The notes under the pieces: generated by a model | What the model saw: only the letters and a program-made list of their open reading frames with translations | The model's database searches: none | Told to the model about the DNA's origin: nothing | Made by a program: the position numbers and the translations under genes | In this document: positions 1-63,581 of the stretch, in pieces | Numbering within the stretch: position 1 is the first letter of the stretch | How the letters are laid out: each line of letters begins with the position of its first letter | Source: a phage | Sequence record: OZ413487.1 | Length of the DNA stretch: 64,000 nt | Direction: 5' to 3' (one strand)

Positions 1-422
1 TCTGGACCCGATCTAAACACTCTTTACTTAATGCATACCAACAAAATGGCGGTGCATCGTTGTGTGACTTAGTTGGAATACTCATGCACCACCAGATGGT
101 GAAGCGTGGGTGGTACGATGAAGGTGTTCGTCGTATTATTTATTACCATAAATAACATTGTGGCTTCATAGAGTAATCTATGTCGAATAACCTCTTTAAC
201 TGCGGGAAGCCTAAACCTTATGGCAAGGTAATCCGCAACGAAGCGCTCAAAAGAGCGAACGCTCAGAGGCCATTCCGAAAGGAAGTAGACCAGCAAGTGC
301 GGTCGAAATGGGAGGATTCCTGTGGTTGCTTATCATAGGAATATGAGATGGTCCGATCCTACGTGAAAACGTATGGCTATGCACGTAATGGTGCGGGGTA
401 GCTTAACGACCTACCTGAACTA

Positions 423-9961: not shown

Positions 9962-10319
9962 CGGCCCCTACTGCCCCGGCTTGTTATTATAGTATCACAC
10001 AGGACAAAGAAAGCAAGGATTTTTTGCATAAATTTTTAAATGATAATGATAACCGTTCTCATTTTATGCAGCGCCCATCCCCGGTGGTTGTCTCCCCCGT
10101 CACCGGTGCCTGCCGTCCTTTCGATAGGTATATCGTGCCACCTGGCGGGGCCGCTGTCAACACTTTTCAAAAAATTTTTCTAACCTGATGCGCTAACCGC
10201 TGCAACCTGGCGGGGTCAGCCTGGCAGGACCTAACTGACCGGGTAGGAGAGAATGAAGGCTTGTAAACCTGGTGGGCCTATGCTACAGGATAGGTAACAA
10301 TTGAAGAGGAGGTACAAAA

Positions 10320-17843: not shown

Positions 17844-18107
17844 ATGAAACGTCTTGATCAGCTCAAATTAGTTCAATATATGGCTTATCGTGTTCTTGAA
17901 GTCCAGAAAGGTAGCAAAAAAGAGGTTTGCGAGAAAGCTTATAAGATCTTCACTCGCAAAAAAGATGACTGGATGCTACGCCAGACTAAAAAGGCTGACA
18001 TCTTGGGGTACCTGGAAGAAGAGATCCGCCTTGAAGAGCAAGAAGAGATCCGCCGTAGTGAGGCAGATTATCAGGCAGCTTGGGAAAACTGGATGAGCAA
18101 CAAATAA
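17844..18107 (+). CDS. hypothetical protein
   Basis: 87 aa; AAGAGG SD; K/E-rich. Confidence 0.55.
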   Translation: MKRLDQLKLVQYMAYRVLEVQKGSKKEVCEKAYKIFTRKKDDWMLRQTKKADILGYLEEEIRLEEQEEIRRSEADYQAAWENWMSNK

Positions 18108-18126
18108 TACAACAAGGTGCACGGTC

Positions 18127-18151
18127 AGGGGCTTAAAGCCCCTTTCTTTTT
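18127..18151 (+). terminator. rho-independent terminator
   Basis: aggggc-ttaa-agcccct hairpin then TTCTTTTT. Confidence 0.65.
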
Positions 18152-19019
18152 GTCTCCTCTTTTCCTACCACAAATGGCCCCGCCTGGCAAATGGAATAAT
18201 CAACAAGCCAGCAATTAACCCCACTGTACAAACATACATATAAAATAACTATTGCATAATTTTTCATTGTGTGGTAGCAGTGCCATTTTTACACGTTTTT
18301 CCTTCCAAAATTGCACGTAATGCAGCATTTGCACAAAATTTAACCTGATGCATATCTTCAATAGCTTGTCAACAACTAAAAATCTTTATAAGTCATACAC
18401 TTACATAACTACAAAAACGTTTTCTACGTGAAAAATCGAGTATAACTATAGCCGCCAGATCTCAGAATTTACGTACGCTCGCCATTCTATAGCCTGCTAA
18501 GCATTTATTCCAACCATAGAATAACGGAATAGTCAATACCTGCATAAAATAATTATTCGTGTAAACTGCATAACATAAATCGGCCCAGGTGTCAACATTT
18601 TTCGTAAACAGTCTGGAATTGTCACGTTAGGTTACCATAAGCAGAGAAATCTTTAGTCGTCTAATGTTTACTGTACATTACTATACTGACTGGAATCATT
18701 AGATGACTAAGAGAAAGATAAGAAATAATTAATAATGTAATTATTTTACCTGTAACAATAAGGCAACTATGCAAACGAATGGCATGGCGCGACGGAGTCG
18801 CGACATAATATAAAAGCAGTAACCATCACCCCCGTGATAGTTTGTCTGCAAACTATTAATCAGATCATAGTTGCCTTGTATTTAGTTAATCATGACATGA
18901 CAAGCAAGGCAACTATAGATCTGCTAATAGTTGCCCTGCTTTTATATTATGTCATGCTAATTATAATCAGTGCGATTATTGTCATGTATAATTATTGTCA
19001 TGCAAACGAATGGCATGGC

Positions 19020-19160
19020 TGATTATCGGTGTGTAAACAGTCAATCATGTAAATGGTTAGCATGTGAACAATCAGGAATGTAAACAATCCAGTGTGTAAA
19101 CTAATAGGTGTGTAAAAGTGTCATGTTGTGTCAGTTAGGTCACATTATGTCAGACAAGTT
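19020..19160. repeat. iteron-like array of (g)tgtaaac(a) motifs
   Basis: At least six tgtaaaca/tgtgaaca/gtgtaaaa variants within about 140 bp, flanked by 18-bp direct repeats gcaaacgaatggcatggc at 18771 and 19002. Confidence 0.5.
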
Positions 19161-19395
19161 TTTCTCCTCTTTGTCAAGTGCTGCATGAAAAATTTACAAG
19201 CTTGTATGGTAGCATTTTTGCGGCCCTGTTTACATTCAGTAATGTATGTATAATCCTTGTTGTGTGGGCGTTTAGACGTCTAGACGGTTGGAAGTCCACA
19301 GGTCAATATCTAATCTATCGGCTGCTAACTATATCCCACACAAATAGTAAGAAATATGATTGTTATATGCGTAAACTGTAACTCATGTTATCAAT

Positions 19396-19765
19396 CCCTG
19401 TATGGATCGCCAGTGGTGCGCATAATAGGTATTATGTTAAATTGCCCGTAATGATAACAGTTCTCACAATGATAGGTATTCTCATTCATCCACACAAAAT
19501 AGGTTGCAAATGTTGTGCCACTGTGTGAACGGCCTGGCCTATTAATTTCTCTCACTGCCTCGATATTTGAGAATTGTTATCCCTGTATGGATCGCCAGTG
19601 GTGCGCATAATAGGTATTATGTTAAATTGCCCGTAATGATAACAGTTCTCACAATGATAGGTATTCTCATTCATCCACACAAAATAGGTTGCAAATGTTG
19701 TGCCACTGTGTGAACGGCCTGGCCTATTAATTTCTCTCACTGCCTCGATATTTGAGAATTGTTAT
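19396..19765. repeat. perfect tandem duplication, 2 x 185 bp
   Basis: Unit ccctgtatgg...gagaattgttat at 19396-19580 repeats identically at 19581-19765. Confidence 0.85.
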
Positions 19766-20823
19766 AAGAATGAGAAGTATTCCCATTCCGTCCGCCTGGC
19801 AGCACTCCTGTAGGTCCTGCAAGGACTCTAGCTGAAAGCTAGACCCTTCGGGCCTCCCTGTAGGTCAGGTCAAAATCGTGGTAGAATTGGGCCTGTTCAG
19901 ATATTTCTGGCTGACTCTTCAGGTCTGTGTGGGAAAAGCCAACCTCTCCGGCGGGGCAGGGGGTCATGACGGGAAAATTGCAGGTCAATTAAAAAATTTA
20001 CGTGGTGTATGAAGCGCTCTTCAGGTAAGGCATGTATTATGGGATGAAACCCTCTTCAGGCAATGATATTTGTGGGTGTGATATTTGCTGGAAAGCCAGA
20101 TATGACGGGACTCCCGGCGGGGATGGGGTAGTACAGACAGGGAAAATATGAGAATGTAGTTGGGGAAATTGATCAGACAGGTAGAGTATGGAATATGTTA
20201 CAAGTATGTTAAATATGGAGGTTGAATATCTGTAGGATTTGTGTGTAAAATCAAAGACTTAAGGGGTGTTGTGGTATTTTCTATAAATAATTCAAGTTTA
20301 ATAGGCAATATTTGTCTCTATCCGCTTTGTGTGGTAAACAGATTCAGATTAGATTGGTTTACAAGTGTATACATAATATACAAATTAAAGATACAAGAAA
20401 CCCCCCTCCCCCTTCGGCTACCATTCACCTTTTCCTCTGACTGGTACTTAAACACTTATTCAGACTCTTCAGGTTATCACCCATATATCATATGGCAGTG
20501 ACTGGTGTCCTCCGGCCCCTCTTTCGTCACCCGTCCGCTTCGCCATGCTAATGCCATAGCCAATGGTTCGGTTGTTCACTCTGTTCACTCAGGTGTATCT
20601 CCATACCCCTTCAAACCGAAGAGAACAGAAAACCCGAATTACTCGGTAAAAGAAAAGAGAAGAACTTAATTTTATCAGGATAGGCAAGAATGTCAAGGCA
20701 TGACTGCTCACTAAACAAGCAAACAGTCATGTGTGGAAGGTAAGTGATTGTGGTGGTGGGAAATTTAGTTGAAAGATGTGTTATAGGTGCTCCCAGCACT
20801 TTAGCCGGGTAGCTAATTGTGTG

Positions 20824-21039
20824 TCAGTCCAGTGGTTCATCACCTACTTCACTGAAATCAATGTTCATGGTCTCCTCCCAACCATCAATCTCAGCACCAG
20901 AGTAGAGATCTTTAGGACTTACTCCCAAAGCATCAGCAACAGAGTCCATATTTAACACCTCTGGCAGGTATGATTCATCGAATTCAAGGTAAATCAGGCC
21001 ACGAGTGTTGTCAGCTCCACCAAATATTTCTATCTTCAT
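20824..21039 (-). CDS. hypothetical acidic protein
   Basis: Start trimmed to ATG 21039 after GAGGAG SD (track 21105). Confidence 0.5.
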   Translation of the reverse strand: MKIEIFGGADNTRGLIYLEFDESYLPEVLNMDSVADALGVSPKDLYSGAEIDGWEETMNIDFSEVGDEPLD

Positions 21040-59878: not shown

Positions 59879-60229
59879 ATGAAAGATGGGGATAAGCTGC
59901 TATATCTTAAAGTCCCCCTTGAAATACTGTCTATGTCAAAAGTTTTGAATGACACAACTGGAGAGGTTGTTGTTCTTGACTTGTATGACAAGATCGTATA
60001 CTGCTACCTGCACAACTGGTATAAGCTTGGAGGAAATTCACGCTTCACACCCAGCACAAGGAAAATTGCAGCAGATGTTGGGATAAAGAAAACAAAAGCA
60101 GCAGCGTGCGTTAAAACTTTAGAGTGTGCAGGGGTGGTTGAAACATCCACACAAGGGAGAGGTAAAAGATGCACATTTTCCAAAGTTTTGCCACCAGAAG
60201 AAGTTATTCGGATGTCAACAACTGGTTAG
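59879..60229 (+). CDS. hypothetical protein (possible DNA-binding)
   Basis: 116 aa; AAGGAGA..GGAGA SD; immediately upstream of palindromic site array. Confidence 0.5.
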   Translation: MKDGDKLLYLKVPLEILSMSKVLNDTTGEVVVLDLYDKIVYCYLHNWYKLGGNSRFTPSTRKIAADVGIKKTKAAACVKTLECAGVVETSTQGRGKRCTFSKVLPPEEVIRMSTTG

Positions 60230-60299: not shown

Positions 60300-60386
60300 T
60301 TAACTGTCCGTGATACGGACACTACTGTCCGTCACGCGGACACATCTGCCCGTAATACGGACACTAACTGTCCGTGATACGGACAC
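60300..60386. promoter_or_regulatory. array of four phased palindromic sites GTCCG-N5-CGGAC
   Basis: Sites at 60306, 60327, 60348, 60370 (gtccgtgatacggac x2, gtccgtcacgcggac, gcccgtaatacggac), spacing 21-22 bp. Confidence 0.6.
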
Positions 60387-60889
60387 ATAAAGAATATAAC
60401 TAAAATAACTAAATAATAAAAAATAAAAGATCTAGTACTTATGGTACTAAGTACATATACTTAACTTATGTAGAATATACTAGATCCTAAGTACCATGTT
60501 TTAAATTTATTACTTACTATGGGCAGTGTCGGCCCTTCATTGGCACTCGCCTACGAGGGGCGAGATGCCGTGCCTCCTTGGTGTACACAATAACAGAAGT
60601 GCATACATGCAGGTCTGTTAACATGTGTGGGAGCGAAGCGATAGCGCAGGCCAAAGGCCGAGCACTGCTGTGGACCACCGACGAAAGCTTGCCAGCGCCG
60701 TAAGGAGTCGGTTGAGAGTCTCCCGCGCGAGCTTGGATGAAGTTTATGTGTGGAAACTGACAAGAAGGTCCCTAAATCGCTCCACAGCCATGTAAACTAT
60801 ACCAAGTAAGGCAATCGCACCAGTTTGATAGAAAAGCTCGTTACAAAGCGATACAGTGAGTTTTTCTATAACTTGAAGAGGAGGCAGCT

Positions 60890-62767: not shown

Positions 62768-62842
62768 GCCCTGTTAGCTTAGTGGATAAAGCAGCGGCCT
62801 TCTAAGCCGTTGACACTGGTTCGAGTCCAGTACGGGGTGCCA
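62768..62842 (+). tRNA. tRNA-Arg (anticodon TCT)
   Basis: Cloverleaf folded by hand: 7-bp acceptor (two G-U), loop CTTCTAA, T-loop TTCGAGT, encoded CCA. Confidence 0.7.
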
Positions 62843-62846
62843 AATT

Positions 62847-62933
62847 GGGGAGTTATCCCGTAGAGGTAGCGGTGTAGACTGTAAATCTATTGTCATTGCG
62901 ACTCGGGTGGTTCGACTCCACCACTCCCCACCA
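62847..62933 (+). tRNA. tRNA-Tyr (anticodon GTA), type II
   Basis: Acceptor ggggagt/actcccc, anticodon loop CTGTAAA, long variable arm, T-loop TTCGACT, CCA. Confidence 0.7.
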
Positions 62934-63047
62934 AATTTATATTTTTAGATGCATAAATAATACAGATAATGGCATTGATATTTATCGTCGTTTATACTAG
63001 TCACTAACTGCTCGAAAATCAGTGTCATTATCAGTATAATTTATAAA

Positions 63048-63138
63048 GGAGGGTAGGGAGCAATGGTGCTCAAGCGGTCTTGAAAACCGTCCCGTTGAGG
63101 ATGACTCGATGATGGTTCGATTCCATTACTCTCCGCCA
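63048..63138 (+). tRNA. tRNA-Ser (anticodon TGA), type II
   Basis: Acceptor ggagggt/actctcc, anticodon loop CTTGAAA, long variable arm, T-loop TTCGATT, CCA. Confidence 0.7.
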
Positions 63139-63236
63139 CATTGTTGACCTTGTAATTAAGCGAAAGCCGGAAGCAGAACCGGATTATCAAATGTTACAGT
63201 CGTCATCGCCGACTAGCAACATGGTCAACATGCTGA

Positions 63237-63335
63237 GCTAGGTAAGCCCTTTGGCAAGGGCGAGGATTTTTAATCCTGAAAATAGACGAGGTAGTCGTTG
63301 AATACATAGGTGGTTCGATTCCATCACCTAGCACC
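63237..63335 (+). tRNA. atypical tRNA-like element (possible tRNA-Lys TTT with long insertion, or pseudo-tRNA)
   Basis: Perfect 7-bp acceptor gctaggt/acctagc, good D-arm and T-arm (TTCGATT), but weak anticodon stem and about 30-nt insert before T-arm; no complete CCA. Confidence 0.3.
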
Positions 63336-63340
63336 TTTTT

Positions 63341-63416
63341 GCTGATGTAGCACAATCGGTAGTGCAATTGATTTGTAATCAATAGGTTGTAGGTTCAAAT
63401 CCTGCCATCAGCACCA
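63341..63416 (+). tRNA. tRNA-Thr (anticodon TGT)
   Basis: Acceptor gctgatg/catcagc, anticodon stem attga/tcaat, loop TTTGTAA, T-loop TTCAAAT, CCA. Confidence 0.8.
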
Positions 63417-63417
63417 A

Positions 63418-63492
63418 GGCCCTGTAGCTGGAAGGTTCAAGCAAGCGACTCATAATCGCCAGACGGTGGTTCAATTCCACCCAGGGCCACCA
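63418..63492 (+). tRNA. tRNA-Met (anticodon CAT; Met vs Ile2 not distinguishable)
   Basis: Acceptor ggccctg/cagggcc, loop CTCATAA, T-loop TTCAATT, CCA. Confidence 0.75.
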
Positions 63493-63503
63493 AATAGTAA
63501 ATA

Positions 63504-63581
63504 CTCCGCGTAGCTCAGCTTGGTAGAGCGCCTGATTTGGGATCAGGAGGTCGAGTGTTCGAATCACTTCGTGGAGACCAC
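63504..63581 (+). tRNA. tRNA-Pro (anticodon TGG)
   Basis: Acceptor ctccgcg/cgtggag, D-stem gctc/gagc, anticodon stem cctga/tcagg, loop TTTGGGA, T-loop TTCGAAT, CCA. Confidence 0.75.

Follow-up and report, generated by a model that had tools for sequence, protein, structure and literature searches.

The window analysed here is a stretch of 64,000 nt from sequence record OZ413487.1 and, judging by its sequence, is that of an rV5-like coliphage of the genus Vequintavirus. Positions 18500-21000 match 122 phage records at 90-97% identity, and the repeat lies in a gene-free gap (18108-20823). On its left, the plus-strand genes end at 18107 and are followed by a terminator-like hairpin (18127-18143), while on its right, the minus-strand genes end at about 20824. 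With this arrangement, transcription converges on the repeat region from both sides.

The gap carries a perfect head-to-tail duplication of a 185-nt unit (Table 1). TRF reported a single array (19394-19765) with a period of 185, 2.0 copies, 100% matches, 0% indels and a score of 744, and no other long tandem repeat in the 64-kb window. A gap-free repeat search likewise found the two copies to be 100% identical. These results bear out the perfect duplication described in the sequence-only reading, whose interval of 19396-19765 is the same array with its phase shifted by 2 nt. Two identical copies of this length cannot have arisen by chance (order 4^-185). The repeat reaches 2 nt into a third copy, an AT shared by the start of the unit and the right flank, and the duplication junction therefore has a 2-nt microhomology. 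The novel junction reads ...GAGAATTGTTAT/CCCTGTATGG..., that is, TTGTTAT/CCCTG at 19578-19581 (here and below, a slash marks a junction or a candidate cut).

Table 1. Coordinates of the features in and around the duplicated unit (window positions; a and b are the left and right boundaries of the direct terminal repeat, DTR).
Feature	Coordinates	Strand	Basis or remark
Gene-free gap, ~2.7 kb	18108..20823		Between converging gene blocks
Outer flank of a: (R)TGTCA-type repeats phased ~10 nt, ending at the candidate cut	19111..19152	+	TGTGTCA..AGGTCA..TATGTCA/GACAAG
Vequintavirus DTR-homologous block	19153..19796		Gotham/ECP2309 alignment, conservation block, a-to-b distances
Copy 1 of the 185-nt unit	19394..19578		Positions 242-426 of the 459-nt DTR of relatives
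Palindrome CATAATA-GG-TATTATG	19421..19436		Sequence
Imperfect 18-nt direct repeat in the unit (AATGATAACAGTTCTCA, AATGATAGGTATTCTCA)	19450..19484	+	Again at 19635-19669
Inverted copy of the 18-nt-repeat motif (TGAGAATTGTTAT)	19568..19581	-	Duplication has its right breakpoint where this copy ends
Copy 2 of the 185-nt unit	19579..19763		100% identical to copy 1
AT dinucleotide, junction microhomology	19764..19765		Sequence and TRF
Outer flank of b	19797..19810	-	Reverse complement GGAGTGCTGCCA/GG; TGYCA/G context as at side a

Comparison with relatives places the unit within a known element of the genus. The record of phage Gotham carries annotated 459-bp repeats that are identical at both ends, and the reverse complement of this repeat aligns to the window at 19153-19580 and again at 19579-19796. 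Phage ECP2309 has an exact 459-bp repeat at both record ends, which aligns to 19153-19796. Gotham has been reported to have a 459-bp DTR with a fixed packaging start (PMC7471380), and terminal redundancies of 458 bp were described for EdH4 and HdK5 (PMC6563267). From the alignment of the Gotham and ECP2309 terminal repeats, it follows that the 185-nt unit is an inner piece of the Vequintavirus DTR, and that the block in the window matches sequence present at both ends of the virion DNA in relatives. The block runs from boundary a at 19153 (GACAAG...) to boundary b at 19796 (...CCGTCCGCC), and the unit starts 241 nt inside a and stops 33 nt short of b. The distance from a to b is 644 nt in the window; it is 459-460 nt in each relative for which both anchors were matched. 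The unit occurs at both record ends in five records (Gotham, EdH4, HdK5, ECP2309 and YN3), all of which have b as their first base, as do four bov records; Pr121LW starts at a. Two papers using PhageTerm describe Vequintavirus genomes as circularly permuted or headful (PMC8407724, PMC13211470; MT884008.2-MT884011.2; PX741096), a description at odds with bov records that start exactly at DTR boundary b and with the fixed repeats of 458-459 bp found in other work.

These boundaries are borne out independently by an alignment of 14 genomes, in which the near-invariant stretch sets in at a and breaks off just past b. The DNA on both sides is hypervariable and rich in indels, to the right of b from ~15 nt outward. 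The contexts of the two cut sites, TGTCA/GACAAG and CCGCC/TGGCAGC, were found in the window and in 16 relatives. Beside a, an array of three or four (R)TGTCA repeats phased at ~10-11 nt was kept in all 16 relatives, in a flank that is otherwise hypervariable. Side b, taken as its reverse complement, is ...GGAGYGCTGCCA/GGCGGACG, so that an inward-reading TGYCA/G is common to both boundaries of the DTR. On the strength of this conservation, the TGYCA/G contexts and the phased TGTCA array are candidate terminase cut or recognition elements. The surrounding non-coding DNA holds further short repeats. The 64-kb window has 40 matches to TGTRWAMA, of which 6 cluster inside 87 nt immediately to the left of the DTR (19030-19116); this cluster is kept in some relatives and replaced in others. 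To the right of the DTR (19807-20474), short modules recur: CCTGTAGGTC twice (19807, 19857), GACTCTTCAGGT three times (19913, 20015, 20463), and CCGGCGGGG[CA][AT]GGGG twice, 166 nt apart (19948, 20114).

The unit was present in 120 records at 127 places; it occurs twice in seven records, namely I29, CM1 and the five that have the DTR at both record ends. Two tandem copies of the unit were found in none of the ~123 relatives. When a 100-nt probe across the junction was searched against phage records, it always split in two over ~187 nt, the pattern of a single copy, and never matched as one piece. The junction was likewise absent from IMG/VR, from a metagenome collection and from GTDB genomes, and the three raw contigs found in these collections have one copy of the unit each. 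The suggestion that copy number may vary between isolates thus holds in the sense that there are two copies here and one in ~123 relatives. Homogenisation by recombination, which had been proposed for the identity of the copies, finds no support, given that the relatives are single-copy and there is no multi-copy family to homogenise.

I29 and CM1 carry duplications of their own over the same region. The I29 record (ON286975.1, 103500-106500) has two perfect 546-nt copies over the DTR region, reaching past b, with a foldback between them whose palindrome arm is exactly 55 nt. By default, metaSPAdes uses k values of up to 55, and the arm is therefore taken as a scar left by the assembler; the I29 record is itself rotated to rV5 coordinates. 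The paper on I29 describes a Nextera XT library and a metaSPAdes assembly with default settings, and reports no analysis of the genome ends (PMC9355613). The I29 reads belong to BioProject PRJNA828263. The repeated block of I29 (L008 reverse complement, 2061-2067) and the unit of the window (19394-19401) start within the same 7 nt (TCCCTGT). This near-common start may be due to chance (~10% after multiple comparisons, by our estimate) or may reflect a recurrent break site; its value as proof of a physical end is weakened by the I29 junction being ambiguous over those 7 nt. In CM1 (MK962749.1, 104200-107200), a perfect 523-nt tandem duplication comprises the DTR and 64 nt to the left of a, and its first copy stops exactly at b. 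Since this unit includes both cut sites, such a molecule would not be stably packaged, and the CM1 repeat looks like a matter of representation.

The content of the unit was considered as a possible reason for its repetition, in the form of a functional element (a promoter pair, iterons, or a small gene or RNA) held identical by recombination. The palindrome that had been noted within the unit is indeed there, along with short repeated motifs, including an 18-nt direct repeat that is annotated as a repeat_region in some relatives, and the most conserved stretch of the unit contains the motif previously likened to a promoter. From their sequence, these motifs may be protein-binding sites within the DTR. 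The promoter itself did not hold up: a sigma-70 scan did not return that motif, its hits were at background level, and both flanking gene blocks are transcribed toward the region. The only sigma-70 match in the unit was TCGCCA-17-TATTAT (9/12), once per copy (19407-19435, 19592-19620), and the 3.4-kb region as a whole gave 12 matches, compared with 9.4 +/- 3.7 in shuffled sequence. Of the four ORFs that overlap the DTR, compared across 14 genomes, three have stops or frameshifts. The fourth, of 47 aa (19385-19528), is open in 14/14 genomes, which would favour a small gene, but its variable sites number 10, 7 and 9 by codon position, which is no coding pattern, and the coding reading was rejected. 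So was an RNA, given that a sensitive Rfam search (E<=1) returned zero matches in 18100-20900 and that the unit folds no better than shuffled sequence (z = 0.28, DNA folding). The 14-mer motif of the unit was rejected as a genome-wide binding site, with 12 matches in the window against an expected 7.6 +/- 2.9 and hence no enrichment. Elsewhere in the window, the sole close match to the dyad-like motif of the unit is GATAACCGTTCTCA (10048-10061), a copy with 1 mismatch. Moreover, relatives manage with one copy, so that a second is not needed. A functional role for the duplication is thus largely refuted, and we regard it as highly improbable.

The way in which the record was laid out offers a different explanation. 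When the terminal 1,201 nt of the window are aligned to three BASEL Vequintavirus records, the match runs to base N-1 of each, and by this alignment the window appears to form the 3' terminus of its record in the BASEL start convention. BASEL genomes were assembled with the Geneious Assembler, with circular contigs formed from fused repeated ends and re-linearised at the small-terminase operon (PMC8594841; PMC11990801). Under this convention, the physical termini lie inside the record, and the contig ends have been joined somewhere. What the sequence-only reading missed is that the unit is the inner part of the DTR, in a record that is rotated and has its physical ends internal. With the unit inside the DTR and the record rotated, the copies may be the two virion DNA ends joined in silico and not a tandem duplication. 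An assembly artefact was nonetheless rightly named beforehand as the thing to exclude, and the initial interpretation of the duplication is, overall, partly supported.

In the course of events that we propose, each end of the linear virion DNA would carry one copy of the ~459-bp DTR, as would each junction in the replicating concatemers. By analogy with T7-type DTR phages, the terminase would cut at the fixed positions a and b, and packaging would regenerate the repeat, which, as in other fixed-end DTR phages, would then let the genome ends recombine after injection. Assembly of such a terminally redundant linear genome could yield a contig whose ends overlap by 185 nt inside the DTR, one end running from a to 33 nt short of b and the other beginning 241 nt inside a. 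If this contig were taken as circular and re-cut at the conventional start with the overlap left unmerged, a...(b-33) would be joined to (a+241)...b, the arrangement seen in the window. On balance we lean, with slightly better than even confidence, to the view that the assembly took in parts of both terminal copies, which were joined in this way, and that the tandem copy is most likely absent from the virion. It is the in-silico origin of the join that we infer here; the identity of the unit with the DTR, the restriction of the duplication to this record, the rotation and the two related defects are observations.

A tandem duplication anywhere inside the DTR is formally equivalent to a right-end and a left-end repeat, both truncated and abutted, and the join may have been made in silico or in vivo. 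The main competitor is a genuine and very recent tandem duplication inside the DTR, produced by illegitimate or microhomology-mediated joining or by replication slippage, to which we give a substantial chance, though one short of even. In one example of such a route, resected ends (33 nt at the right, 241 nt at the left) would be joined through AT. Cleavage by the terminase would continue at a and b, and the phage would pass on a terminal repeat of 644 bp. This specific course, from two resected virion ends through the 2-nt join to the heritable repeat, is put forward only tentatively and seems rather unlikely. Location and phylogenetic distribution speak for the closure artefact. The duplication falls within a region that makes up 0.3% of the genome, in a rotated record whose contig ends were joined somewhere, and a chance hit on so small a target would be unlikely for a real duplication without some special mechanism. 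Two of the ~123 related records have a defect of the same class, and among the relatives there is none with a genuine-looking DTR duplication, all internal ones being attributable to assembly. Other perfect tandem duplications of at least 100 nt are absent from the window, which also tells against a real event. On the other hand, DNA ends would be a plausible hotspot for end-joining errors, and the interior of the DTR is non-coding, so that an insertion there would likely be tolerated. Homologous slippage between the flanking TGTTAT or ATTGTTAT repeats was rejected as a route, as it would give a period of 189 or 214, not the 185 observed, and another junction.

The fine structure of the duplication points less clearly to a closure error. 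The record start is set by convention and the duplication lies within the terminally redundant region, as such an error would have it, but the length of 185 nt matches neither the whole DTR (459) nor a k in standard use by assemblers (55, 127), neither breakpoint falls at a or b, and a foldback or other assembler scar is absent. The AT microhomology is somewhat more to be expected of a biological illegitimate join than of abutted contig ends. Both cut sites lie outside the duplicated segment with their contexts intact, and a real duplication would therefore withstand packaging and pass stably to the progeny. In other respects the assembly is clean: 17/17 large genes are intact relative to MaxTheCat, a count that also led us to reject an unpolished long-read assembly as the source. 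The twelve BASEL Vequintavirus genomes, whose start convention is the same as that of the window, are all single-copy; none of them is identical to the window, which must therefore come from another phage that follows this convention. Short-read assemblers usually collapse the DTR into a circle without leaving a 185-nt overlap. A further possibility, that the true terminal repeat is only 185 nt long because the cut sites have shifted, and that rotation set both complete copies side by side, would make the tandem unit equal to the whole DTR, as expected of a rotated full-length linear record, and would sit well with the I29 block starting within 7 nt of the unit start. Against it, the contexts of a (TGTCA/GACAAG with the phased TGTCA) and of b (CCGCC/TGGCAGC) are conserved as in phages with a mapped 459-bp DTR, the conserved block extends from a to b and not over the unit, and the TGYCA/G context is absent at the unit boundaries; we consider it very improbable. 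By our rough estimate, the closure artefact is about as likely as a real duplication, with some lean toward the artefact, and what little remains is shared by minor alternatives.

In practical terms, the analysis flags a probable closure error in a Vequintavirus genome record and points to I29 and CM1 as two public records with a defect of the same kind. Defects of this sort make genomes appear longer than they are and can give rise to spurious repeat annotations. A by-product is a precise map of the packaging termini of the genus, which delimit a conserved block of ~459 bp within a hypervariable non-coding gap of 2.7 kb. Should the duplication instead be real, it would imply that the terminase picks its cut sites from flanking signals (the phased TGTCA and TGYCA/G) and not by measuring the length of the repeat. 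It would also amount to a natural experiment in which the DTR interior tolerates a 40% expansion, and the start of the I29 block within 7 nt of the unit start could then point to a site in the repeat that is recurrently broken or nicked.

Several other features of the window and of related records came to light. A group I intron match in Rfam (140-375, plus strand, 64.7 bits) lies in the DNA polymerase gene, which in MaxTheCat is annotated as a two-piece joined CDS. At 60303-60388, in an intergenic position past an ORF ending at 60229, a 21-nt unit with the form of a small palindrome (TGTCCGT-NNN-ACGGACA) occurs four times in tandem, and by sequence this array looks like a set of operator sites. 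Six tRNA matches occur at 62768-63577, two of them only just above the gathering score. Among the related records, ~18 unannotated entries labelled 'Campylobacter phage' (MG0656xx) are 91-99% identical to this E. coli Vequintavirus DNA; one of them, MG065646.1, is marked UNVERIFIED, and they are probably mislabelled or contaminant assemblies.

Compared with known cases, the window resembles I29 (ON286975) and CM1 (MK962749) in having a perfect, record-specific duplication over the DTR; in all three records, the start follows a convention. It differs from I29, with its k-sized foldback scar, and from CM1, in which a copy ends at b, in that its duplication is scarless and neither boundary falls at a terminus. 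In the mode of packaging, the likeness is to T7-type phages, with fixed ends and a short exact repeat present in one copy per concatemer junction, a likeness drawn from the published fixed start of Gotham and from what is known of T7-like phages. Sequence similarity to T7-type phages is nil, and the cut or recognition elements proposed for Vequintavirus derive from conservation alone. The closest counterpart is the Vequintavirus DTR as described for Gotham (459 bp) and for EdH4 and HdK5 (458 bp), to which the block in the window is 94-96% identical, with the same boundaries and the same position between converging genes. Unlike these, the block is 644 nt long and has positions 242-426 twice in tandem, an arrangement seen in no described member. 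The DTR of the genus is already published, and the tandem arrangement, if real, is a minor length variant of this known element.
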